DNA of 64,000 nucleotides, from positions 73,887 to 137,886 of the forward strand of contig CAZHDZ010000004.1 in NCBI GenBank assembly GCA_964531275.1, read 5' to 3'. The notes under the pieces were generated by a model. It made no database searches and was not told the origin of the DNA. It saw only the letters and a list, made by a program, of their open reading frames with translations. Shown piece after piece: positions 1 through 64,000 of this stretch. The translations under genes were made by a program, and so were the position numbers. This DNA is from an uncultured Gammaproteobacteria bacterium (lineage in GTDB: Bacteria > Patescibacteriota > Microgenomatia > Levybacterales > GWA1-39-11). How positions within the stretch are numbered: position 1 is the first letter of the stretch; every line of letters begins with the position of its first letter.

Positions 1-1127
1 TTGTCGATTGCCCTTTTGAGAGGACCCAAGCCTCCTTCTCTCAAACCATCAACTGTTAATTCTGTTCCATTAGCAACTGCCTGACGCGCTTCTTGCTCTA
101 TAGTATCAATTGTCCAATACCCATCTGGTCTTCTCAGCTCATTTAGGCCTAATTTAAATCTCCAATACGCTCTCCCCTTCTCTGATAGCACTGCGTCCAA
201 ACTAGACTCACCAAGTATTGTAAGTTCTTCACGCGTAGGTAAATGGTCTAGTCCTTCACCCTTAATAATTCTTCTTATCTCAAACTCAACATAACTTTCA
301 TCTTGCAAACTCCCCCTGGTACGAATGCGTTGTTCAAAGCCCAATTTCAACTGCCAGGCTTGAAAACCTCCATTTTGTCTAATTGCATTTACCAAGCTTG
401 ATTCACCGTTATCGATTAATTGCTGAGGTGTTGGAAAACTATCTAAGCTATATTTTGCCATGAAACTTCTTATGAGCTGGGCAACATTGGCTTCATTTCT
501 CATTGAACCTCTTTCCCGACGTGGATTTTCAAAACCCATTCTCGTGCGATAATATTGAATAGATTTTGCAGAAATTGCTCTCGACAATTTCCATTCTTTT
601 AGCGCACCTAGGACTTTTTGATTAGGAAATGTAGTTAATCCATGAGCCTCCATAACCCTACGAATGTCCAGCTCAATTTCGGCATCACTTTCAAAACCTT
701 GTCTATTTGGATCCAAAGCTTCACCTTGTGATTGTGTTTGAAATTGACGGGTTTCTGTATTAAAAACTGAGCGAGCAAGGACCACACTCGAATCGTCCTG
801 CTTCTTTACAACTACTGTCAAATTTCCATCTTCATCTAGTGATGGCTCTAGAAGGACAGTATCACCCTCTTTAAAACCTGTACTTCTTAGAGCAATCCGT
901 ACACCACGTTTATTAAATTTACCTACATGAACAATTCGATTACCGTTTAATGTTCTGGTGAAAGGTGTTAGTTGATCTGCCCCAATCTCTCCGCGTAGAT
1001 ACTCAACGATATTACTTTGTCCTGTGAGCAATGCATCTGGTGCACTCTCTTGCAATACTTCTGTGAGTCCCAGTCCTGCATTAAATTGCCCATGCTCTTG
1101 TCCTGGAATTGGTTGTCCTTCACTCAT
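1..1127 (-). CDS. Paralog 1 of a tandem repeat-protein family (N-terminal part only; C-terminus lies beyond the window start). HEAR-like helical repeats.
   Basis: Reverse-strand ORF has no stop before the window edge. It starts MSEGQPIPGQEH at 1127 in an ATGA overlap with the stop of the next gene. The translation contains several ~50-aa repeats (GYWTIDTIEQEARQAV..., WQLKLGFE..., YWRFKLGL...) homologous to the three downstream paralogs. Confidence 0.6.
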   Translation of the reverse strand, partial: MSEGQPIPGQEHGQFNAGLGLTEVLQESAPDALLTGQSNIVEYLRGEIGADQLTPFTRTLNGNRIVHVGKFNKRGVRIALRSTGFKEGDTVLLEPSLDEDGNLTVVVKKQDDSSVVLARSVFNTETRQFQTQSQGEALDPNRQGFESDAEIELDIRRVMEAHGLTTFPNQKVLGALKEWKLSRAISAKSIQYYRTRMGFENPRRERGSMRNEANVAQLIRSFMAKYSLDSFPTPQQLIDNGESSLVNAIRQNGGFQAWQLKLGFEQRIRTRGSLQDESYVEFEIRRIIKGEGLDHLPTREELTILGESSLDAVLSEKGRAYWRFKLGLNELRRPDGYWTIDTIEQEARQAVANGTELTVDGLREGGLGPLKRAID

Positions 1128-2569
1128 GTCTCTTCCTCCAATCCTTTCATTAATTCGTCTGCTTGGTCAGGATTAGCCCCTAGGTCATGCTTTGTTAATC
1201 CTAATTTTTCCCTCAAAGCCTTGCGTCCACCAGGATAATGTTTTGCTATTGCAGCTGAAAGTCCACTATTCTTATTATCTATCATTAAGGTAGGCGTAAT
1301 ATCCCCATGTAGCTGAAAAAACTCAAAAGCTTCTCTTTCTATCCTTTCTGGATTCCATACAGAGGGAATCTCCTCAAGTTTTATTCCCAAAGCGTTCCTC
1401 AACTCGACTATACCTCCAGGATAATATCTTCCAATTACATACAAAAGGTCAGAATTTCCGCTAGCCTCCAATACTCTACCCGTCAATCGAGCTCCCGTAC
1501 TACAATATTCTTCTACTGCCTTCTTAATCTTATCTTCTGTCCAATATCCTTCTGGGTATTGAGAGAGTGCAACTCCCAATCTTTCTTTTAAGGCGTTCAT
1601 ACCTCCGGGATACTGAGCTGAAATTATTGGTCCTAGCTGACTCCCCTTCTCTCTTAGGGCTGGGACCGTTAATGCACCTTCTTTTATATAAAAATCTAGT
1701 GCTTCCTTTTCGATATTCGCGGGGTCTTGCCAATACCCATTTGGTTTTCTTCCTGGACTTATACCTAGTAACGTTTTTACTGCATCCATTCCTCCTTCAT
1801 ATTTTGTAATTGCTGATGAAAGAGAAGATGAGTCATTTTCAGCCAAAAGCTGATGAGAAATATCACCATGCTCTCTATAGAACTCGGCTGCACTCTGCAC
1901 TACCCTTTCCGATGTCCAAAATCCCTTGGGCTTATGTCCTCCCTCAACCAGTCCCAGCTTTTCTCTTAGTGCTCCTGTGGCCCCAGGATAATAAGAACTA
2001 ATTGCTGAGCTTAAATCTGCACGCCCTATTTGTTTTAAATACTCATGATTTATTTTCCCTCCGTTTGCAATGAGATTACGCGCCTCGTTCTCAATTGATT
2101 CAGGCGTCCAAAACCCTAATTCTTTATGCGGAGCATCTATTCCCAACTCTTCTCGTATCTTTTGAATTCCGCCCGGGTAGTGAATAGTTATTGCAGCTCC
2201 CAACCCTGACTGCTTGGCTTTCCCTAAGGCGTACACAGAAAGCTTGCCTGTTTCCTGATAAAATTTGAGCGCTTGCGACCGTATATCACTAAGTGCTTGA
2301 TCGGGATTCTCCCTTATCATTGCTGACCATAACGTTCTTTTTGCCGCTGATGCACCACCGTCTTCTTCCACTACGCCAGGTTCAACAACGGGAGAAAATA
2401 GACCATTCTTCATGTCATGGTCAATTAATGGACTAATCACCGTATCGCTATCCTTCTTTTCAACTAGAGGTTGCTCTGCAACCTGAGCGGTTGGATTTAT
2501 GATAGAGCCTTCAAGTGTAGACTGTTGCAAATTGACTTCTTCTTGCTGAATTGGCTCACCTTCGCTCAT
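1124..2569 (-). CDS. Paralog 2 of the repeat-protein family (481 aa), about eight tandem ~50-aa repeats.
   Basis: Repeat consensus: KPxGYW(T/S)xExIxxEAxxF...G.L....L...G.S.L..AI...YPGG...LRxKLG. C-terminal tail ISPDQADELMKGLEEET. ATGA start/stop overlaps on both sides. Confidence 0.7.
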   Translation of the reverse strand: MSEGEPIQQEEVNLQQSTLEGSIINPTAQVAEQPLVEKKDSDTVISPLIDHDMKNGLFSPVVEPGVVEEDGGASAAKRTLWSAMIRENPDQALSDIRSQALKFYQETGKLSVYALGKAKQSGLGAAITIHYPGGIQKIREELGIDAPHKELGFWTPESIENEARNLIANGGKINHEYLKQIGRADLSSAISSYYPGATGALREKLGLVEGGHKPKGFWTSERVVQSAAEFYREHGDISHQLLAENDSSSLSSAITKYEGGMDAVKTLLGISPGRKPNGYWQDPANIEKEALDFYIKEGALTVPALREKGSQLGPIISAQYPGGMNALKERLGVALSQYPEGYWTEDKIKKAVEEYCSTGARLTGRVLEASGNSDLLYVIGRYYPGGIVELRNALGIKLEEIPSVWNPERIEREAFEFFQLHGDITPTLMIDNKNSGLSAAIAKHYPGGRKALREKLGLTKHDLGANPDQADELMKGLEEET

Positions 2570-3759
2570 ATCTCCTCCTCCAATCCCCTCATTAATTCAT
2601 CTGCTTGGTCTGGGGAGATTTTCCCAAAATTTTCCTCTTCTATGCCAAGATAACTATTTAAAGCTGTAAAACCTCCAGGATAATATTTGGTGATTGCACC
2701 CATAAGACCTCCTGCTCCTTTTTTCAAAAGAAGTCTTCGAGATATTCTTCCATAGGTACCAACAAACTTTTTAGCTTCTTCTAAAGCTTTTTCTGCAGAC
2801 CAATAACCTTCAGGTTGTGCTTGATTAATACCAAATTTTGCCTTGATACCCCTCATCCCACCAGGATATTTTTCTGAAATAGCATGACGCAAATCAAATC
2901 GTTTTTCTTTTGATAAAAGTGATTGGGACAAGCCTCCATTTGACATAATAAATTCGGACGCTTGCTTTTCAATTTCCTCCACTGTCCATGGAATTTCTCT
3001 TCCGAAAGTCTGAGATCCAAATCTCTGCCTCCACTTAGAATAACCCCCATTCCTAATAATAGCTGCACTCAATGATGCTTCACCCATAGAGTGCAATTGT
3101 TCAGCGCTGGGAATCTCTGACAAATGATGCTCTTCAATTAGTCTTAATATTTCTAATTCAATGTTACTTTCATTATTCCAATACCCACTTTCCTTCTTTT
3201 CGGGCAGTCTTTCAAAACCCAGTCTTTCTCTCCAATAATTAAATCCTCCATTTCTGGTTACAGCAGATACGAGAGTACTGGAACCAGAGCTCACTATTTC
3301 TAAGGCTGATGGAAAATGCCCAATTTTTTCGACTATCTTTCTTAATTCTCCATCGATATTTTGTGTGTCTGTCCAATAATCAGGCGGTTTTTGGGTAATA
3401 GTAAATCCCAACTGCTGTCGCCATTCTCTAAATCCACCAGACTCAGTCACTGCATGTGCAAGAGAGTTCTTGCCCATTCCCCTCAACTCCATTGGTGTTG
3501 GGAAATGGCCAACAGAATCAATAATACTTCTTAATTCCCTTTCGATATTCGAGTTTTCCTTCCAATACCCTTGGGCCATTCTTTCAGAAGGCTGAATGTC
3601 ATCCACAACTGGTAGATCTTGCACCAACGATGGTTCTTGAACTGTTATTGTCTGGTCAATTAATATTGGTCCTTCTGCCAAGTCGGGTAACGAGACAATG
3701 GTATCTCCCGTAAATTCATTTTCTAAGTTTGAAACTATTACCCTATCTTGCTCACTCAT
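2566..3759 (-). CDS. Paralog 3 of the repeat-protein family (397 aa).
   Basis: Same GYW...E.NIE.E and YPGG...G repeat architecture. Conserved tail SPDQADELMRGLEEEI. Starts MSEQD. Translationally coupled by ATGA overlaps. Confidence 0.7.
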   Translation of the reverse strand: MSEQDRVIVSNLENEFTGDTIVSLPDLAEGPILIDQTITVQEPSLVQDLPVVDDIQPSERMAQGYWKENSNIERELRSIIDSVGHFPTPMELRGMGKNSLAHAVTESGGFREWRQQLGFTITQKPPDYWTDTQNIDGELRKIVEKIGHFPSALEIVSSGSSTLVSAVTRNGGFNYWRERLGFERLPEKKESGYWNNESNIELEILRLIEEHHLSEIPSAEQLHSMGEASLSAAIIRNGGYSKWRQRFGSQTFGREIPWTVEEIEKQASEFIMSNGGLSQSLLSKEKRFDLRHAISEKYPGGMRGIKAKFGINQAQPEGYWSAEKALEEAKKFVGTYGRISRRLLLKKGAGGLMGAITKYYPGGFTALNSYLGIEEENFGKISPDQADELMRGLEEEI

Positions 3760-4958
3760 ATCTCTTCCTCCAATCCTTGCAAAAATGTGTCTGCCTGATC
3801 AGGGGAAATAGTTAATTCAGCCTCTTTGCTCAATTTTTCTTTTAATGCCTCATATCCTCCTGGATATCCATTACCAATAAAATAAGCAAGACTACCTAAA
3901 CCTGATCTCACGAGCTCTCCTCTAGTTAGATGTACTCCCTTATCCAGTGCAGCCCGCGCTTCATTCTCAATATTAGATACGTCACTCCAATAACCATTTG
4001 CTTTTCTTACAGTTAAACCTAATTTTTCCCTTAAACCACTGTATCCTGCTGGATACTCCCGTTTGATTGCAGCCGCAAGAGCAGTGTAACCCTCCCTATG
4101 TAATGCGTCTTTTTTTATATCAATCCCTTTTTCTAATGCAGCGCGCGCTTCATTCTCAATAATTCCAGGATTCTGCCAATATCCAGGGGCTCTTTGCCTT
4201 GATGGTTGGTTAAACTTCCCTCTCCAAAAGGCTACTCCTTGATTTGCCATCGCCAGACCAAGGCTGGCATTTTTTCTGAGTTCAGTGTGAGTTGGAAAAT
4301 GGCCATATTCTTCAATGTGCCTTTTCAACTCATTTTCAATATTACTTTCATGGGTCCAGAATCCAGGGGGTTTACGTCCTCCAAATTCTGTACCTAAATA
4401 TTTTCTTAAAGCATACATTCCACCTGGGTACTTTTTGGAAATTGCTTGTAACAAATCGTCTCTTTTTAAGCTTCTTAGATTTGTTGCATTAAATACTTCC
4501 ATCCCGCCAACCAATGACATTGCCTCAGCTTCGATATTTTTGGGATCATCCCAATATCCTGCCGGCTTATTTTCTCTAGTTCTATCATCTTGCATATCCC
4601 TCCTTAATCCCGCAAAGCTTCCGGGATAATATTTTGAAATAACAGTTCCCAGCCCTGAATTGCCACTTATATTTAGTCCGTCTTGTGTTAAAGAAATACC
4701 TTCACTTACTAGCACCGAACTTCGTTGTTGTACATATAGCTTCAAAGTCTCAGGGGCTTCTGCTAATTTTTTCCAATCAATATAACCACGCGATTCTATT
4801 GGTGGAATAATTTCGGAAATTGGACTTTGACCTAAGGGTTGTTGAACTACAAATTCACCCTCCTTTTCAAGATTAGGGTTTTCTTTAATATCCAGAGATG
4901 ACCCTTCAAGAATCTGAGTGTCAGGAACTTGATTTATATTTACTTCTCCCTCGCTCAT
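3756..4958 (-). CDS. Paralog 4 of the repeat-protein family (400 aa).
   Basis: Starts MSEGEV. Repeats include GYWDDPKNIEAEA, GFWTHESNIENE, GYWQNPGIIENEA and GYWSDVSNIENEA. Tail ISPDQADTFLQGLEEEI. Confidence 0.7.
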   Translation of the reverse strand: MSEGEVNINQVPDTQILEGSSLDIKENPNLEKEGEFVVQQPLGQSPISEIIPPIESRGYIDWKKLAEAPETLKLYVQQRSSVLVSEGISLTQDGLNISGNSGLGTVISKYYPGSFAGLRRDMQDDRTRENKPAGYWDDPKNIEAEAMSLVGGMEVFNATNLRSLKRDDLLQAISKKYPGGMYALRKYLGTEFGGRKPPGFWTHESNIENELKRHIEEYGHFPTHTELRKNASLGLAMANQGVAFWRGKFNQPSRQRAPGYWQNPGIIENEARAALEKGIDIKKDALHREGYTALAAAIKREYPAGYSGLREKLGLTVRKANGYWSDVSNIENEARAALDKGVHLTRGELVRSGLGSLAYFIGNGYPGGYEALKEKLSKEAELTISPDQADTFLQGLEEEI

Positions 4959-4978
4959 GAAGTTATTATATAAAGATT

Positions 4979-6250
4979 TTACTCTATCTCGTAGATTGGG
5001 AAGTTGCGGAAAGAATCAATCGCTTCTTGTAAATGTCTCTCTGTCTGCGCATACATATCAAATATATTCTCATTATTTTTTACCTCATCATCAACTCTTT
5101 TTTTCAAAAATAAGCCGGCCCTAGCATCCTGAGGAGCCCCTAATATCTTTGCGATTAATGAGACGTTTCTATTATTCACTCTCTTTATTACACCGGATTT
5201 ATTGGATTTCACCTCGTGTGTTTTTGGTCCAGCATGAAGTTTTGAAGAAATAATAGTAGGGTCACCCTTTTGAGCCTCGATTATATCCATCATTTTCTTA
5301 TGAGCAACCCCGCTTATTAATATACTTTCTGCCCATTTCTCAGTGCTCTCGTATTTTTTAGCCTCTTCTTTGATCTTTTCATCAGCACTTTCAAGACATA
5401 AAGTCAAAAGTTCACCAGCAAGTTTTAGAGATTTTTTCTCCAGTGCCATAGGTCTCGTAGGATCCTGCTCAAGCACTTTAAGTGCATCGGCAGCTTCTAA
5501 AAGTGGTCCAATACCATTTCCTGCAGGCTCATATGCATGAGACAGAATTGCCTCAAGTTTTATATTGAATTTTTTGGCAATGAATTTAAATTTCTTGGCT
5601 AAATTCTCGCCGTCTTCCTTGTGGTGTACTTTCATGGTACGGCCATAAGGGATATCAATTACAACGTGATTGGAGCCAAATGCTATCTTTTTCGCCATAA
5701 CAGACACCAAAATCTTGTCAAAACTCTCAAGCGCCAAGGGTTCTTCAACATGTATTATCTGGTCATCAGCAGGTGCAATTTTAAAGCTTCCTCCCCATAC
5801 AATACAGGCATTTGTCTTTTCAACAATTCTATATATGTCATCCTCAGTAAAAGTAACGCTGGCAAGACATTCCATCGAATCCGCAGTACCAGCAGGGGTA
5901 GTGATGGCCCTAGAAGAGCTTTTAGGAATCAAAAATCCTGCACTTGCAATAATTGGCACAATTATCATGGTGGCTCTGGTCCCAGGAAGACCACCGATAG
6001 AATGTTTGTCGGCAACAACCCCTTTAAATTTAAGCTTGTCACCCGTCTCAATCATTGCCTTGGTGAGATAGTAAATCTCATCATAGGTAAAGCCCTTAGA
6101 GTATCCTGAAGCAGCAAAATAGGTAGTTAAGACATCACCCAATCGTTCATTTGCAATCTCATCCATGATCGCAAAAATCTCCTTATAGTTAAGCTCTTTG
6201 CCAACTAATTTTTTTTGTATTGCCTTTAGCGCCAGCGCATTGGGTACCAT
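4979..6250 (-). CDS. AMP phosphorylase / thymidine phosphorylase family protein (archaeal-type nucleoside phosphorylase).
   Basis: 423 aa. Motifs DKHSIGGLPGTRATMIIVPIIASAG and TTPAGTADSMECLA are typical of the pyrimidine-nucleoside / AMP phosphorylase family. Confidence 0.75.
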   Translation of the reverse strand: MVPNALALKAIQKKLVGKELNYKEIFAIMDEIANERLGDVLTTYFAASGYSKGFTYDEIYYLTKAMIETGDKLKFKGVVADKHSIGGLPGTRATMIIVPIIASAGFLIPKSSSRAITTPAGTADSMECLASVTFTEDDIYRIVEKTNACIVWGGSFKIAPADDQIIHVEEPLALESFDKILVSVMAKKIAFGSNHVVIDIPYGRTMKVHHKEDGENLAKKFKFIAKKFNIKLEAILSHAYEPAGNGIGPLLEAADALKVLEQDPTRPMALEKKSLKLAGELLTLCLESADEKIKEEAKKYESTEKWAESILISGVAHKKMMDIIEAQKGDPTIISSKLHAGPKTHEVKSNKSGVIKRVNNRNVSLIAKILGAPQDARAGLFLKKRVDDEVKNNENIFDMYAQTERHLQEAIDSFRNFPIYEIE

Positions 6251-6257
6251 AAATAAT

Positions 6258-6327
6258 AATTTTCAATTTCTAAATTCCAATTTTCAAGTTAGTTTGATCA
6301 ATTGGTATTTGATCATTGGCCATTAAC
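6258..6327. repeat. Copy A of a ~70-bp intergenic direct repeat (contains TAAATTCCAATTTTCAA).
   Basis: Aligns with 6558..6632 at about 80% identity. The core TCTAAATTCCAATTTTCAA is identical and recurs exactly 300 bp downstream. Confidence 0.6.
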
Positions 6328-6557
6328 AATTTATGCACCTGGCTTAAATTGTTCCAGGGCTACTTTTAAGAATCCTTTTATAACCCTTAATAGATGATAC
6401 AGGAAAAAAGATATAACTCTATTCACAGATGGCCAAATATTATAAAAAAATCTGTATATTCTGTCTTTCCATAAGGAAAGAGTATAGGCACGTTGCATTT
6501 GCTGATCTTCTGTTGAGGGCGTGTATTGCTGTTGATTGTTTGGATCCATACTTTGTT

Positions 6558-6632
6558 AATTCTCAAATTCTAAATTCCAATTTTCAAACTTTTTGGTTAT
6601 TGGTTTTTGATTATTGGTCATTGTTCTGCTGT
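6558..6632. repeat. Copy B of the ~70-bp direct repeat. Overlaps the 3' end of the sortase gene.
   Basis: Same core motif as 6258..6327. The pair flanks a 230-bp segment. Confidence 0.6.
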
Positions 6633-7375
6633 AGGCTCGCTCGAATAACAAGCCTTTTCCAAGTGGTGCCGGGAGGGGTACAGGTTATGAGGGTTATATA
6701 GCTATTGTCATAACTTTGGGAGAAGATATTTGGATCTTTTGGATCCGTAATCCCAATAGAAAATACTTTATAAGTATAGTCTTTACCATTAACAGTCAGA
6801 ACAAAGTCATCTCCTTCTTTTAACGTATGGAGTTTTGCAAAAATTGCCATGTAATTTTTAGGGTCAAACCATTGGGGAAGAGTTGAATGGCCAAATATTA
6901 CTGACGTTCCCTTTTCGATGGGACTTTTTGAAGTGGTAAAATACTGCACCAAATGCTTTGAAAGATCAAAATCGATAGCCGAAACTTTTGCCTTGTTAAT
7001 TCCTTGGGAAGGAATTGAGAATTCATACTCATCGACTTTCTTTACCTCAGCTTGAGTCTGTGCATGAACAACTTCTTGATTTGCTTGATACGGGAACCAA
7101 TTTCTTGCATCTTTATAGTCTGAAGTGACATTCTTAAATCCATGGCTAACAAGCCCTCCTAATGGACTAGAACCATTTAGGACATATCTCTGAGGTATAG
7201 GCGACTGAATCTCGCTCCCCGCAAAGGCTGATGAAAGATAGAGGTGATATGAGATCAATGGAAAGAAGAAGTAAAGGAGTGTTACTATTCCAAGACCGAT
7301 AATAAATAGCCCAAGTAACTTTTTCTTGTTGTGATAAAAAGAAGACCCACCTCTTCCATATGAATATCTATGCAT
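6611..7375 (-). CDS. Sortase-family transpeptidase.
   Basis: N-terminal TM helix, a conserved His region, and the sortase active-site motif ITLITCTPPGT followed by a conserved Arg (VIRA). Confidence 0.65.
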   Translation of the reverse strand: MHRYSYGRGGSSFYHNKKKLLGLFIIGLGIVTLLYFFFPLISYHLYLSSAFAGSEIQSPIPQRYVLNGSSPLGGLVSHGFKNVTSDYKDARNWFPYQANQEVVHAQTQAEVKKVDEYEFSIPSQGINKAKVSAIDFDLSKHLVQYFTTSKSPIEKGTSVIFGHSTLPQWFDPKNYMAIFAKLHTLKEGDDFVLTVNGKDYTYKVFSIGITDPKDPNIFSQSYDNSYITLITCTPPGTTWKRLVIRASLQQNNDQ

Positions 7376-7377
7376 GG

Positions 7378-9624
7378 TTATTGCGTCTTAACCTCAATAC
7401 TAATATTTCCTGGATTTAGAGGCACAATTTGAGGCAAAAATGGAATAGCATTTTCAAATTGAATTGACGCATCTGAAATACCGGGAGTTTGCTTTAGACT
7501 ATCAAGGGCTTCTTTTGATCCTTTCCCCGCAACAATTTTAGGCACTGATTTTTCATCAAGTGATGGCTTGAAAATAGCGTTATACGAAAGTTTTGCTGAG
7601 AGATCTTTTCCGTCTTGCTTGATATCTGAGATTTTAATTGTACTTTCATTATCTGAAAGCTTAAATTCATCGGGTACATCAAATTCATCCGATGAAGAAA
7701 TGAAATTGAGAAGCTCTTCCTTGTTGTAGACTCCCAATGTATATGTTACTGAAGCATTTAACTTCAATGTCTTTGCAGTATCATTCTCTTTTCTGTCAAA
7801 TTTTTTCTCCTTAAAGTCAAAGGAAAGATACATTGGGACCATTGCGTCTTTCTCAGACAAAGATCCTTCTGCTTCTCCTTTTGCTTTATCAAAAAGTCTT
7901 TCAATAACTGATGTTTCAAGTGTCTGCAAGTCTTTCTTAGAAACTACCTGTATCTCTTCCTTTGTTCCGCCTGAGAATGCAGAATCATTTCTTCCGAAAA
8001 CATCAGAAGTAGAAAGGCCCTTTATTGTAAAGTTTGTTTGGGATGGAAGGTTATACTCTTTACCAAAACTCGAAGCTGCAACTTTTGCCTGAGCGCTTTG
8101 GAAAGATGTCGCAAAAGAGCTGGTCGAGGCAATACTAACCGCATCGTTAAGAGTAAATTCAAGATTGTTTGAGGAAGTAATAGTCGATCCTTTTTCTAGT
8201 TGCTTGGGGCTTTCTGTCTTGTTAAAAATGGTTACTGTACCAGTCGCTTTTTGACCGGTATCTTTCTTGCCTGTGGTTTCTTGGGCCTGCTCTCCGCTTG
8301 CCTCTTGCTCTATTGTAGAAATCTTAAGTATTTTATCCTCAAAAGATGAACTACCGCTTGTACTTAATGTTATATCCATCTGATCTTGAGCAAATTCTTT
8401 TTGATCCGTAAATACAATTACCTTCACCTTTACAATTGCTGTGTAATAAATCACAAGAACAACTATCACGACAATAAGCGCAATCAAAGGAATTATAAAT
8501 TGTCTTCCACTACCGATCATTTTTGGGAAGCGAGATAGTGATCTTGGAGTAAAAAAAGAAGCCAATGACTCCTTAAAACCTCTTCGTGCACTACTATGGC
8601 CTTCTACTTCTTCGGGGATGTCCTCCTCATATTCACTTTCAGCAACCTCAGTTTGCTCAATACCATGATGCTTTATAACTGCATGTGAAGTATTATCTTC
8701 ACTAAATTTAAAGCCATCTTCCTCAGGGGTAGTTGGCGACACCTCAGATACTACTTGAGAAGCAACTAGAGCAATGTCTTCGTCTTTCAAAAATCCGAAA
8801 TCATTACTACTCGATTCTTTTACCTCCCCTACTTCTATGTCTTCTTCTCTTGAAGGCGTGACCATTTCACCACTTATCGTTACGTTGAGTTGAGATGCTA
8901 CTCCCGTTATTATTGCTTGATTTTCAAATCCCTTCTCAAGAATAGTCACCTGAGGCAAGTGCATAAATGGAAGTTCTTTCGTCCAGTGATGTGACAGGAA
9001 TTTCTGAGAAACTGCCTCAGCCTCCTTATTGTGAAGAAGAATTATCTTTGGGGGAAGTACATCAAGCTTTGTTACTTGGGAAAGCAATTTTTCAACGGTA
9101 GCCTCAACACCATCCTCTACAATTCCGTGCTTAACATCAATGATATTCCCCCCTCTTACGATAAATACTGTTAAATACTTCTCCGAAAGTTCAACAAAAA
9201 TACCACTGATTGGAGCTCCTTCTTTCTTTTGCAATGCGGCTGTTATTGCCTCAATTGAGACGATAAAACCCATAGGGGTAAGTGCTAGTTCTTGGCTTAT
9301 TTTTTTAAGTTGCGTCAGTCTTTCGGACTTGATTCTTCCTTCCTCAACCCATGAGTAAGGAACTGCAAATATAGTCTTTTCTAAATTCGCACCCTCTGGA
9401 AGGCTCATCTCAATACGCGAAATGACTGTATCACATACAACAATAAGATCTTCTGCAGATGATTGTTCAAGATCTACTGGTGCTTCATGAGAGGAAAGGA
9501 TAATGAGAGTTTTTTCTTGTTCTTTAAAAAGGATAGAGGAAACCTTATCCGACTCAAAAATTAGAGCCAGAAAAAATTCAGTAGTAACAGTCTTTGTTAA
9601 GAATGGTATGGCAGGAAACTTCAT
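7378..9624 (-). CDS. Large hypothetical membrane protein (748 aa): N-terminal cytoplasmic domain, single TM, Ser/Thr-rich extracellular region.
   Basis: Long ORF with one strong hydrophobic helix (FIIPLIALIVVIVVLVIYY) and no recognisable catalytic motif. Abuts the sortase gene. Confidence 0.45.
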   Translation of the reverse strand: MKFPAIPFLTKTVTTEFFLALIFESDKVSSILFKEQEKTLIILSSHEAPVDLEQSSAEDLIVVCDTVISRIEMSLPEGANLEKTIFAVPYSWVEEGRIKSERLTQLKKISQELALTPMGFIVSIEAITAALQKKEGAPISGIFVELSEKYLTVFIVRGGNIIDVKHGIVEDGVEATVEKLLSQVTKLDVLPPKIILLHNKEAEAVSQKFLSHHWTKELPFMHLPQVTILEKGFENQAIITGVASQLNVTISGEMVTPSREEDIEVGEVKESSSNDFGFLKDEDIALVASQVVSEVSPTTPEEDGFKFSEDNTSHAVIKHHGIEQTEVAESEYEEDIPEEVEGHSSARRGFKESLASFFTPRSLSRFPKMIGSGRQFIIPLIALIVVIVVLVIYYTAIVKVKVIVFTDQKEFAQDQMDITLSTSGSSSFEDKILKISTIEQEASGEQAQETTGKKDTGQKATGTVTIFNKTESPKQLEKGSTITSSNNLEFTLNDAVSIASTSSFATSFQSAQAKVAASSFGKEYNLPSQTNFTIKGLSTSDVFGRNDSAFSGGTKEEIQVVSKKDLQTLETSVIERLFDKAKGEAEGSLSEKDAMVPMYLSFDFKEKKFDRKENDTAKTLKLNASVTYTLGVYNKEELLNFISSSDEFDVPDEFKLSDNESTIKISDIKQDGKDLSAKLSYNAIFKPSLDEKSVPKIVAGKGSKEALDSLKQTPGISDASIQFENAIPFLPQIVPLNPGNISIEVKTQ

Positions 9625-11481: not shown

Positions 11482-11525
11482 GTAGTAGGTATTGTAGCAG
11501 AATGAGGTAAAAAACTCGAGAAGGT

Positions 11526-12137
11526 CTACTGATGTTCTGGAATGACTCCCGCATCCCCACCAAATCCATATTGCTGAATAATACCCGTTAGCTCACTTAC
11601 GCTTGGCAATGTGTTCGCGACATTATAGTAATCTGCGGGAGACAGGGTTGTACATTTATTTTGCTGTGCGCCTTCAGCAGCACGCCAAAGTAGTCCGCAA
11701 ATTTGGGGATCAACATTCAAGAAGGGATCTATCCCTTCGCCTTGTGGAATAGATCGGCTTTTGAGCTCAGCCCTGCCCGCCTCAATATCTACAGTTAGAC
11801 CAAGCCCTCTTGCCCTCACCTCATCAAGAGCCTCTTTTACTTCTGGGCTTTCATAGGCCGCAAGCATAACGTGCTCTGGCAACAATACTGCGTGTCCAAG
11901 AGCTGCCGCTTCGTCTTCAGCCTTAATGAGAGTTCTTATCATCTCATCTGAAAATGTTGGCATGTCAACTTGAGCGAGCCTTTCGTTGAGAAGAGTAAAG
12001 ATTACATGTGGTTGTCTTTCTGCACTTTCCTCAAACTCAGCTCCATTTGCAGTAATTGTTGGAGGTCCACCAGCACCCTCCATTCGGGTTTCGGTTTGAT
12101 AAATATGTGGTTGTCTTTCTAGTAACGCTGCGCTCAT
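11526..12137 (-). CDS. Stand-alone Clp N-terminal (Clp_N) domain protein.
   Basis: Clp_N repeat-like segments (LGHAVLLPEHVMLAAYESPEVKEALDEVRARGL). Two ERQPH motifs. GC visibly higher than flanking DNA. Confidence 0.55.
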   Translation of the reverse strand: MSAALLERQPHIYQTETRMEGAGGPPTITANGAEFEESAERQPHVIFTLLNERLAQVDMPTFSDEMIRTLIKAEDEAAALGHAVLLPEHVMLAAYESPEVKEALDEVRARGLGLTVDIEAGRAELKSRSIPQGEGIDPFLNVDPQICGLLWRAAEGAQQNKCTTLSPADYYNVANTLPSVSELTGIIQQYGFGGDAGVIPEHQ

Positions 12138-12167
12138 ACAGACATACTATTATACACGGTAAAATTA

Positions 12168-12647
12168 CTACCGTAACTCTTTTAATCGTTCGTCAAGATT
12201 TCTTGAGCTATTATTCTCAAACGCTATATGAGACACACTAACTTCCTCCCACTTTTTCATATAATCATCCAGTAAATTTTCACCAAAAAAATGATTTTTT
12301 CTTTGTGAAATTCTTTTTTTGTGAACAATTGATGGTGCAGTCACTAAAATGAGCTTGATCTGGCCAGAAAAAGCACTTAGAACATATTCTCGAGATGTAT
12401 TATCTGGAAGACTATCCCCTAGAGCAATGTTGTCGTGATGCTTTTGAAGCTTTTTTATATGATCTATAATTCGCTCAAGCTTTAATAGCCTATCCTGCCT
12501 CGTGAACTTTTTATTCAATAATTTCTCTCTATCTTCATCTGTTAAAAAATCGTCGGCATCAAGATAAGAAAATTTTTCAATTACAGCTAACCTCTTCGCG
12601 CAATAATCTTTCCCAATTCCAGGAAATCCAAAAAACCAATAAATCAT
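12168..12647 (-). CDS. P-loop NTPase / small nucleotide-kinase-like protein.
   Basis: Walker A motif GFPGIGKDY near the N-terminus. 159 aa. Confidence 0.5.
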   Translation of the reverse strand: MIYWFFGFPGIGKDYCAKRLAVIEKFSYLDADDFLTDEDREKLLNKKFTRQDRLLKLERIIDHIKKLQKHHDNIALGDSLPDNTSREYVLSAFSGQIKLILVTAPSIVHKKRISQRKNHFFGENLLDDYMKKWEEVSVSHIAFENNSSRNLDERLKELR

Positions 12648-61950: not shown

Positions 61951-64000
61951 CTATTTACATAAATTGCCATAAGTTTTTTGAATCATTGCAGATGCACCAC
62001 GCGCGCCTAATCCCGCTTCCGTAGTCATAGTTCCTGTCTTTGGATTTACATTTAATTGGTATGCTATAGGTACAGGTCCAGCCATGAAATTTGTCTGAAA
62101 CGATGCGTCCGTTCCGGGAGAAGGCTCCGCTTTTGAATATGTAACAGAGGCACCAATCCCACCAGGAAATGCAACACCTGCAGCATGATATAAATATACC
62201 CCTGTCTTATCTAGATCTACAAGCGCTCCCACTCCTATGGCTAAGGGTACAATACCAACGCTTACACCAACGTTAACATAGTCTTCTCCGCTAGGGTCCG
62301 CGTAATTTATTGAATCTCCGTTTGCAAAGTTGTAGCCATTTTGGGTTTGGGGACTCATAAGATCTCCTTCGACTGGATCTCTGGAAATGAAACGGCCAAT
62401 GTTTGAATCATAGTATCTTGCGCGCATGTAGGAAAGATTGGTATTTGGATCAAGTTGTTCTCCCTTGTATTGAAAGTCGTCTTCTCCTATTCCACTTAGT
62501 ACATTTCCGTATGGGTCGTAAGATAGATCTTTAATATATTCTCCGTTGCTATCTGTAACAATTCTAATATTTCCAATTCCATCTTCTAAGTAGTATTCAC
62601 GATTTCCACTACTTACCCCACCTTCACTTATGAGTCCATTGCCGTAGAGATAATAATTATCAGTACTATTTGTAAGATCTTTGGTAACAAGTACTTTTTC
62701 CAAATCTCCAGAAACATCATTTATATACTTTTTAGTAAGAGAAGAATTTTCTTTTTCTGCAACTCTCTTACCATTGCCGTCGTATAGAAAATGATACGTA
62801 GGGCTTCCAGATGCTGCATATGTTGCCAATTTATTTTCGAAGTTAAAAGTAAGTGTTTTGTTACCAAATCCAGTTATGTTGCCATTATTGTCATAAGAAT
62901 AGGATGTGCCGTCTTTTACTGTAAGCCTATTGTCATTATTGTATGTAAGAGCACTGCTGGATGCACCCAATGTTCCTGTTAGCATATTCCCAACCTTGTC
63001 ATATGTATAAGCAAATGAATTGCTTGCAGATGTTGCTGCTGTGAGTCTTCCTAATGGGTCATAAGTAAACTGAAAATTTGACGAAGCACCACCACTTGCT
63101 TCTGCTGGCTCAAGCGCTACAGCAACATGGTTTGATCTACCACCATAAGAGAGACTCCAATCCATATCGACCGCTGCTGGCCCACCGGATTGAATAATAC
63201 TAGAGCCACTTCCATTGTCATAAGAATTTGGATGACCGTTTTCTGACCAATCCAATTCATTGTCACCATCTTCAGTGGGGACAGGCTCTGATTCTATTAC
63301 ATCAATAATTACATTATTTGCCGAATTAGGTGTAATGCTAACGGAAGAATAATTACTGCTTTGAGATAGACTGTCTGATTCAACAGTGTAGGTCTGTTTG
63401 ACATTGTATATGGAGTAAGCTGCTAGAAAAGTGTAGTCCCCGCCACTAAGTCCTGATGTTACGATGCTACCACTTCCGCCTGCTGGCGCCTGCAAGCCCC
63501 ACATTTGTACGAATTCTCCATACTGACCGATTTGCTGAGCCAACTTAGTCAAAGCAACCCCTCCATATGTCACTCCAGTTGCCCCAGTTGCTCCTCCCCC
63601 TTGGTGAGAGCCGACTGATACAAGCAAGAATCTGTTTGAATTACTGCCATTGACCGGAAAACTGGAGAGAGTTACGTTACCCCCAGTATTGTGCGTTGAT
63701 TCTATCGTCCCATCAAGCTCGATAGTTGAACCTCCACCGCCCCCAATGCCTTCAGACGAAGCCTCGGCCGGTTCAAGAGCAACTGCAACATGGTTGGATC
63801 TTGCACCGTAAGAAAGCGCCCAATTCATATCAACCTCGGAAGGTCCCCCAGACTGAACTATGGTAGAGCCACTTCCATTGTCATAAGAATTTGGATGACC
63901 GTTTTCTGACCAATCCTCTATATTGGCTCCGTCAACAGTTGGCACAGGCTCTGACTGAATAGCATCAATTATCCAATTATCGGCTGAGTTTGGAGTGATG
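61951..64000 (-). CDS. Rhs/YD-repeat polymorphic toxin (partial; N-terminus beyond the window) with a unique Gly-rich hydrophobic C-terminal domain.
   Basis: YD repeats (YDPLGRLT, YTYDKVGNM, YSYDNNGNI, YHFLYDGNGKRV). Core end motif RARYYDSNIGRFISRDPVEGD...DPSGE. The ORF is still open at the window end. N-terminal region carries a repeated ~55-aa unit (DWSENGHPNSYDNGSGS...). Confidence 0.85.
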   Translation of the reverse strand, partial: ITPNSADNWIIDAIQSEPVPTVDGANIEDWSENGHPNSYDNGSGSTIVQSGGPSEVDMNWALSYGARSNHVAVALEPAEASSEGIGGGGGSTIELDGTIESTHNTGGNVTLSSFPVNGSNSNRFLLVSVGSHQGGGATGATGVTYGGVALTKLAQQIGQYGEFVQMWGLQAPAGGSGSIVTSGLSGGDYTFLAAYSIYNVKQTYTVESDSLSQSSNYSSVSITPNSANNVIIDVIESEPVPTEDGDNELDWSENGHPNSYDNGSGSSIIQSGGPAAVDMDWSLSYGGRSNHVAVALEPAEASGGASSNFQFTYDPLGRLTAATSASNSFAYTYDKVGNMLTGTLGASSSALTYNNDNRLTVKDGTSYSYDNNGNITGFGNKTLTFNFENKLATYAASGSPTYHFLYDGNGKRVAEKENSSLTKKYINDVSGDLEKVLVTKDLTNSTDNYYLYGNGLISEGGVSSGNREYYLEDGIGNIRIVTDSNGEYIKDLSYDPYGNVLSGIGEDDFQYKGEQLDPNTNLSYMRARYYDSNIGRFISRDPVEGDLMSPQTQNGYNFANGDSINYADPSGEDYVNVGVSVGIVPLAIGVGALVDLDKTGVYLYHAAGVAFPGGIGASVTYSKAEPSPGTDASFQTNFMAGPVPIAYQLNVNPKTGTMTTEAGLGARGASAMIQKTYGNLCK

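Follow-up and report, generated by a model that had tools for sequence, protein, structure and literature searches.

Translationally coupled arrays of HEAR-type repeat proteins with a conserved C-terminal helix, and a candidate SNF2-methyltransferase partner

Homing-endonuclease-associated repeats (HEAR; PF18780) are tandem helical units of ~55–60 aa that read W...(E)L..I...G.(F)P....L.....L..AI....GG....R..LG(F/Y). Units of this kind make up the proteins of a four-gene array (genes A–D, positions 1–4958) at the left edge of a 64,000-nt stretch of contig CAZHDZ010000004.1, hereafter the window. In contrast to described HEAR proteins, the window repeats stay below the Pfam cut-off, are mostly of a YPGG variant and have no nuclease in the same protein; the window proteins also carry a conserved C-terminal helix, lie in coupled arrays and, in relatives, stand next to a large SNF2-methyltransferase (hereafter the giant protein). 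HA domain repeats (PF03457) are short helical modules on SF2 helicases that are presumed to bind nucleic acids, and a giant-virus 'Helicase-associated domain-containing protein' was a weak structural match (BFVD, E 0.027); however, no Pfam HA match was found in the window proteins, whose repeats are on separate polypeptides and not fused to a helicase. Type I restriction-modification systems (HsdS with HsdM/HsdR) and single-chain helicase-methyltransferase enzymes are alike in that a motor and a methyltransferase are served by separate, variable, non-catalytic recognition subunits, sometimes in several copies, but the giant protein has neither a nuclease domain nor a (D/N)PP(Y/F) motif, and the putative adaptors have no HsdS-like architecture. 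The ATPase lobe and methyltransferase of the giant protein also match DISARM DrmD and MADS mad2 weakly (18 and 28 bits), although the scores are far under the cut-offs (18 versus 950 bits), the rest of the system genes are absent and the array proteins have no counterpart there. Finally, in dockerin–cohesin pairs and in the FtsZ C-terminal peptide a conserved terminal element plugs diverse proteins into a common partner, and the array proteins likewise combine diverse bodies with a short conserved C-terminal element that follows a variable linker; this is an analogy only, with no sequence or fold relation to the array tail.

The literature searched (HEAR/PF18780 and helicase-methyltransferase arrays of the candidate phyla radiation) gave no description of the system, PF18780 appearing only as one table entry in a repeat-modelling paper. 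The tail, the coupled arrays and their link to an SNF2-Methyltransf_11 protein were not found in that literature or in Pfam, NCBIfam, PADLOC and PHROGs, and the repeat is of a known kind, divergent. The family is large and almost unannotated, with ~1000 clusters at 50% identity; the few names seen in source records were generic ('hypothetical protein'), and one giant protein was named 'methyltransferase domain-containing protein'.

The minus strand of the window carries three complete open reading frames (ORFs) and a fourth that is cut, arranged head to tail. The first-pass annotation, made by a model from the letters, had described four minus-strand genes that start MSE(G/Q) and are joined by ATGA overlaps, and the ORF listing and all three junctions confirmed this, with GGATTGGAGGARGAGAY preceding each overlap. 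Gene D (3756–4958, 400 aa) comes first among the array members visible in the window and is an exact member of the protein collection; it consists of an acidic disordered N-terminus (aa 1–73, nt 4740–4958, from charge computation), five repeats (nt 3822–4739) and the tail ISPDQADTFLQGLEEEI (nt 3759–3809). Gene C (2566–3759, 397 aa) has an N-terminus predicted to be disordered (aa 1–63, nt 3571–3759), three GHFP/GGF-type and two YPGG-type repeats (nt 2638–3570) and the tail ISPDQADELMRGLEEEI (nt 2569–2619), and gene B (1124–2569, 481 aa), also in the protein collection, has an acidic N-terminus (nt 2300–2569), six YPGG-type repeats (nt 1193–2299) and the tail NPDQADELMKGLEEET (nt 1127–1177). 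Gene A (1–1127) is cut by the left edge of the window, leaving 375 aa visible and the C-terminus outside; it contains a non-HEAR N-terminal module with the motif RIALRSTGFKEGDTVLL (aa 60–143, nt 699–950) and at least four repeats (nt 3–698). All repeats were delimited with the repeat hidden Markov model (HMM). When the visible stretch of gene A was used as a homology query, no match came back, itself included. Its N-terminal module also occurs in L003 10569–12881 and L008 8292–10040, two genes of the related loci described below, with 41% identity to residues 517–620 of the former. Within gene A, the segment NKRGVRIALRSTGFKEGDTVLLEPSLDEDGNLTVVVKK is presumably like an AbrB/SpoVT-type swapped-hairpin DNA-binding motif, with no significant match in Pfam.

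The tails of D, C and B follow (S/N)PDQAD..L.GLEEE(I/T) and are identical at 10–13 of 17 positions, compared to 32–37% identity between the bodies, so that the near-identical tail reported earlier for three of the four proteins holds. At ~30% identity, the synonymous sites of the paralogs are saturated and give no usable dN/dS. All three carry, in the last ~25 residues, the motif (S/T)(P/S)(D/E)(Q/E)A(N/D)E.L.(K/R/G)(L/F)(L/V)E in its AD variant. The wider consensus is I-S-P-D-Q-A-N-E-Q-L-x-K-L-L-E, with A at 100%, N at 90%, L at 84% and E at 81% over 31 tails, and in relatives the tail reads SPDQANEQLAKLLE(G/A)AK. All 29 occurrences of the strict motif fell within the last 25 residues, with none at internal positions in 27,857 aa. 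HMM searches with the repeat and the tail had been suggested in the first pass; the last-repeat+tail profile, run against 1.84 billion representative proteins, gave 1042 matches at E <= 1e-3 and 229 at <= 1e-30, and 126 of the 144 new top matches had the motif in their last 28 residues, with five internal occurrences in 60,972 residues. The AD variant of the window was found in 12 of the library representatives, e.g. VSPDQADEMMRGLEVLP. In the five loci with AN/AD tails and several tail-bearing genes (L003–L006 and L008) every array member bears the tail except one apparently split L005 gene, and L015 adds at least one more. In that L005 case, the array member at 4334–5323 lacks the tail and a TTG-start ORF beginning mid-repeat follows 47 nt on (5371–6576), which looks like one paralog split by a frameshift or an assembly error.

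The tail does not depend on a HEAR body, as it is present in L004 6903–8534 and in most L008 genes, which have no HEAR repeat and instead carry other modules, namely an LPRVD..TG.Y.D..G..W...GR...G...LY.E.E repeat, a PRD.RGRI.W..NIQGLFLE domain and beta-rich Y.WIDVY repeats. Terminal genes that no successor overlaps have the tail too (L003 10569–12881, L004 8531–9742 and the L006 genes). The tails differ by lineage, with E..LLE..VGDL on eight coupled paralogs in L016 (joined by 8-nt overlaps and sharing the C-terminal helix LE.E.S..R.LLE.(I/L)VGDL), ...VDFAVDYLRQRGAVT in L013 and ...ISFEEF... in others, and the very last residues are variable. A beta-clamp-binding motif was considered for the tail and dropped, the sequence being QLxKLL and not QLxLF and predicted to be helical, and a C-terminal degron was dropped because the extreme terminal residues are not conserved.

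In five of the related loci the array lies directly upstream of an orthologous giant protein: L003 (7 coupled genes), L004 (7–8), L005 (7), L006/L007 (3) and L008 (6). L015 has at least two coupled genes, and the arrays of relatives hold 1–8 genes. The giant protein has 1273–1344 aa in these five loci and ~1100–1350 aa across its family, and is a fusion of an SNF2-like ATPase and a Methyltransf_11 domain, with the SF2 motifs GxTGxGKT, DE, ALTATPI and QxxGRxxRP and with a class-I S-adenosylmethionine (SAM)-binding domain. The corresponding matches are Pfam DEAD (2.3e-6), Methyltransf_11 (1.4e-5) and phrog_62, a phage helicase (1.8e-23); no helicase relative was found in the PDB by sequence or profile search. 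The family forms 41 clusters in a 90%-identity collection, one of them from Candidatus Daviesbacteria. A distant giant protein in L013 (SNF2-rel_dom 7.4e-16, Methyltransf_11 3.9e-14) is overlapped by a single HEAR-repeat gene, with a small protein downstream.

Downstream of the giant protein, L005 and L006/L007 encode a small protein of 138–184 aa (138–212 aa in the wider definition of the family); the L008 homologue is located upstream of the array instead, and the L005 copy has the tail-like ending RPQDANRNLERLV. The array is replaced in Daviesbacteria (locus L009, next to rpoBC) by a single protein of 1205 aa with all modules. It ends TPTDLERLLEL and the downstream small protein ends APTDLEKLLEV, so that both partners show the same change of tail. 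Similarly, one 1995-aa protein stands in place of the array in L011, with RNase III on one side and rpsP/trmD on the other. Each unit is therefore a cassette of one or more adaptors, an SNF2-methyltransferase and usually a small protein, with the adaptor part either fused or split into up to eight coupled genes. Its organising principle is a variable body with one invariant C-terminal helix, strict gene coupling and one large, conserved enzymatic neighbour. A 302-aa ORF on the opposite strand (11504–12412, minus) breaks the otherwise coupled array of L008 and may be an inserted mobile element; the L008 record bears the label 'uncultured Gammaproteobacteria', at odds with its relatives.

For the organism of the window itself, further contigs give a partial view of the array beyond the left edge. 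A 137,890-nt NCBI contig is on record for genes B, C and D, and a contig of equal size for P0103, a 587-aa protein that starts MSEIDGG..., ends in the tail ISPDEADAMMRQLEIE and is absent from the window. Sequencing run SRR12762304 yields both L002, 100% identical to the window, and L018 (2.4 kb). The latter holds the end of a tail-bearing gene with helix-turn-helix (HTH)-like modules (tail PNPDQADELIRGLEEEV), P0103 after an ATGA overlap and, four bases after P0103, a third gene that starts MSEIPEDQQ...GAKAVDTVLGNPEFPTLYPAS. The N-terminus of this third product is 35% identical over 48 aa to the giant protein P0032 (FGAKAVEQVLSSPNFRERYPES; E 2.6e-5). Other contigs found via gene C (2.6–3.1 kb) all lie inside the window. 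The array has at least five genes in this organism and probably runs leftward out of the window as D-C-B-A-(L018 gene 1, possibly the same as A)-P0103-giant, the order being pieced together from contig sequences.

The bodies of the array proteins are built from repeats with a period of 62–65 aa and a DNA spacing of 186–189 nt (direct-repeat analysis), longer than the ~50 aa of the first-pass annotation. An HMM seeded on the window repeats found 5, 5, 6 and at least 4 units in D, C, B and A. The GYW...YPGG signature given earlier describes one of two flavours, GYWT.E.IE.EA...YPGG..ALR.KLG; the other, GYW..NIE.EL..I...GHFP....L....L..A....GGF..WR..LGF, accounts for three units in C, one in D and three in A. 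PF18780 (HNH_repeat) reached 19.5 bits on gene C (E 0.0013), below the gathering score of 26; it did not match genes B, D or A, nor any of 19 single window repeats at E <= 0.01. The likeness to HEAR noted in the first pass is nonetheless supported through relatives of gene C. P0002, among its closest relatives (E 5.6e-96), scores 111.5 bits with PF18780 and P0008 scores 72 bits, and P0009, P0011 and P0013 also pass. Furthermore, an hhalign comparison of a profile of 103 YPGG-type units with 25 units from nuclease-linked HEAR proteins gave 98.5% probability (E 2e-15) over 54 columns, end to end, both unit sets having been collected with one and the same HMM. P0002, P0008 and P0010–P0013 have extra C-terminal or central domains that are nuclease-like by eye and unnamed by Pfam. 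YPGG-type repeats were also seen within much larger proteins (P0108, 1417 aa; P0200, 1576 aa; P0154, 1034 aa). No catalytic domain was found in A–D in Pfam, NCBIfam, PADLOC or PHROGs, in agreement with the first reading.

In the AlphaFold2 predictions each unit is built from four helices of 15, 6, 9 and 8 residues, and a single repeat modelled by itself has a pLDDT (the per-residue confidence) of 86.7. The whole gene C model (pLDDT 73) has five such four-helix units at pLDDT ~80–90, a disordered region at residues ~1–61 and the tail as one helix at residues 383–396. In this model the units behave like beads on a string, because the global score (pTM) of the whole protein is only 0.37; a fold search of the whole model against the PDB gave nothing significant, as expected for such an arrangement. 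The window repeats thus appear to be divergent HEAR repeats with a predicted helix-turn-helix-like fold.

We suggest, tentatively and at close to an even chance, that the tail is a common docking helix by which adaptors attach to the SNF2-methyltransferase. This is the best fit because an invariant tail sits on variable bodies and on non-enzymatic members, changes together within a genome and accompanies coupled genes, and the giant protein is the most economical partner because it is the one constant, tail-less component of the cassette. The array would then encode modular, non-catalytic binding proteins that are translationally coupled, each made of a disordered, acidic head and independent four-helix HEAR-type repeats in series, or in relatives also other putative nucleic-acid-binding modules. 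After a short linker, an amphipathic helix of 12–15 residues, (I)SPD(Q/E)A(N/D)E.L.(K/G)L(L)E, could act as the docking peptide that connects every adaptor, and in some lineages also the small cassette protein, with a single common partner. The most likely candidate for this role would be the co-encoded protein of ~1100–1350 aa with the SNF2-like ATPase and the class-I SAM methyltransferase, and the outcome would be one motor/methyltransferase with several interchangeable target-binding arms. We infer the docking, the identity of the partner, nucleic-acid binding by the repeats and the substrate of the methyltransferase. A shared docking determinant had already been put forward in the first pass; comparison supports that idea strongly, since the tail is kept whatever the body, on terminal genes, on the small proteins of L005 and L009 and on the fused L009 protein, with physical docking still a proposal.

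Several points weigh against this proposal. The predicted tail helix has a pLDDT of only ~60. A tblastn search of the 64-kb window for the giant and the small protein found homologues of neither, and the link to a giant protein in the same organism depends on L018, a single contig of 2.4 kb with no overlap to the window. In L006 the small protein lacks the tail, and in L016 (3784–19662) the order is reversed, with the array downstream of a 1227-aa helicase-like protein and a different tail. The conserved columns of 42 giant proteins contain no (D/N/S)PP(Y/F/W) amino-methyltransferase motif or conserved nuclease triad, and the only PDB matches of the giant family profile were SAM enzymes of the small-molecule type. 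For HEAR repeats in general, DNA binding is deduced only from their association with nucleases, and the A–D proteins are acidic overall (pI 5.2–5.7) with near-neutral repeats, a charge profile that does not point to strong DNA binding. Should the helix prove to be a docking peptide, it would offer a simple, testable form of modular adaptor recruitment to a helicase-methyltransferase in organisms that so far resist cultivation, and would give homing-endonuclease-associated repeats a function outside nucleases. A broader claim, which we regard as possible and rather doubtful, is that the cassettes form an undescribed, clade-wide machine of candidate-phyla-radiation-type bacteria, an SNF2-methyltransferase armed by 1 to 8+ tail-attached HEAR/HTH-like adaptors, and that this machine is a programmable multi-target modification or remodelling device that acts on DNA, RNA or chromatin-like substrates and lacks a known counterpart.

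It is also conceivable, though unlikely, that the tail is a self-association helix which bundles the paralogs and the small protein into a multi-armed complex, with the giant protein only a functional neighbour. All tail-bearing proteins of a genome share nearly one amphipathic helix, and a bundled complex would be the equivalent of the single 1205–1995-aa protein of other lineages; the fusion of modules in one chain in L009 suggests that the separate proteins act together, and translational coupling favours stoichiometric co-production. However, a helix of 12–15 residues is short for holding a stable bundle together, one tail persists in the fused L009 protein, and the giant protein is the one tail-less constant of the cassette.

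A refinement of the docking proposal, for which we see a similarly low probability, is that the cassette is an anti-phage defence or conflict system in which the paralogs act as diversified specificity or sensor subunits. Relatives differ in copy number (1 to 8) and the paralogs are only ~30% identical, the giant protein matches mad2 (1.8e-7), DrmD (1.6e-4) and phrog_62 (1.8e-23) weakly, and toxin-antitoxin, EVE and recombinase genes occur near some loci. In contrast, no nuclease or other effector domain was found and the methyltransferase is not of the DNA amino-methyltransferase type. Several loci lie amid the housekeeping genes rpoBC, RNase III/rpsP/trmD and rsmH/ftsI, no relatives were found in viral contigs, and the array proteins match no PADLOC model.

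The junctions between the genes bear on whether the tail is conserved as a peptide at all. The D/C (3738–3803), C/B (2548–2613) and B/A (1106–1171) junctions, all on the minus strand, each contain the tail codons, a GGAGG (3767–3771, 2577–2581 and 1135–1139) and an ATGA (3756–3759, 2566–2569 and 1124–1127), the first also taking in the first codons of C. Together they form the direct-repeat family D3, with copies of 66 nt at 1106–1171, 2548–2613 (85%) and 3738–3803 (71%), and they are the best-conserved DNA of the region because the Shine-Dalgarno sequence lies in the tail codons. In 26 of 40 junctions, with ATGA or 8-nt overlaps, GGAGG stands at -12 to -8 of the next start inside TTG-GAG-G.. 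codons for L-E-(E/G/V), as it does at all three ATGA junctions of the window. The end of the tail is used twice, as peptide and as the ribosome-binding site for the gene that follows, which makes it a clear case of dual coding; the coupling fits co-produced subunits. This explains why GGATTGGAGGARGAG is invariant in the window and why the window tails end in an EEE run, which is encoded by the Shine-Dalgarno sequence GGAGGARGAG; the acidic character that the first-pass annotation took for a conserved property of the tail is not one, as relatives differ. The recurrent 'MS' start likewise arises because the ATGA overlap forces the second codon to begin with A, giving S, T, N, K, R or I.

The same data would suit a purely nucleotide-level origin, in which a cassette of Shine-Dalgarno sequence and overlap was copied with duplications or homogenised by gene conversion and the peptide has no role: GGAGG falls in L-E-(E/G/V) codons at those 26 of 40 junctions, GGATTGGAGGARGAG is invariant and the junctions are 85% and 71% conserved over 66 nt. 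We consider this very improbable. The conserved peptide reaches 30–45 nt upstream of the Shine-Dalgarno sequence and is conserved across hundreds of 50%-identity clusters, and the SPDQAD codons of D, C and B differ synonymously. The tail also persists where no coupled gene follows, and in the L006 genes, which lack a Shine-Dalgarno sequence at their junctions. Because terminal genes keep the tail and the SPDQAD codons vary synonymously, it is not only a ribosome-binding-site effect; the part upstream of the Shine-Dalgarno sequence is conserved at the protein level, and the nucleotide-level account covers the last 3–5 residues only and, for the SPDQAN.QL.K part, is largely refuted.

A C-terminal export or secretion signal on secreted effectors or surface proteins, the other role raised in the first pass, is scarcely credible: a conserved extreme C-terminus on divergent bodies does resemble some secretion substrates and the window has a sortase gene 1.7 kb upstream, but the acidic disordered heads have no hydrophobic stretch (from sequence and charge), no LPXTG-like motif precedes the tail, no secretion genes recur beside arrays in related loci, the last residues vary, a small protein in tight linkage with a helicase shares the tail, and the conserved neighbour is a cytoplasmic-type SNF2-methyltransferase.

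Upstream of the array, gene D starts 20 nt past the stop of an AMP/thymidine phosphorylase-family gene (4979–6250). No Shine-Dalgarno sequence precedes gene D (4959–4990), and a TATAAT-like hexamer lies 6 nt upstream of its ATG (TATATAATAACTTCATG); the transcript of gene D may be leaderless or have a very short leader, or the gene may share a transcript with its upstream neighbour. A promoter and terminator scan of positions 1–6500 gave counts not above the shuffled expectation, and in the whole 64 kb no Rfam family reached its gathering score, so no tRNA, rRNA or riboswitch was found. The sortase gene (6611–7375, minus) has the same orientation as the array, as does the gene directly upstream of it (7378–9624, minus), which encodes a protein of 748 aa that is hydrophobic in a central segment and has a Baseplate_J-like match (PF04865, 26.5 bits). 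The GC skew is strongly negative over positions 1–4000 (-0.24). Near the right edge of the window, a 664-aa ORF (61951–63945, minus) has RHS repeat matches.

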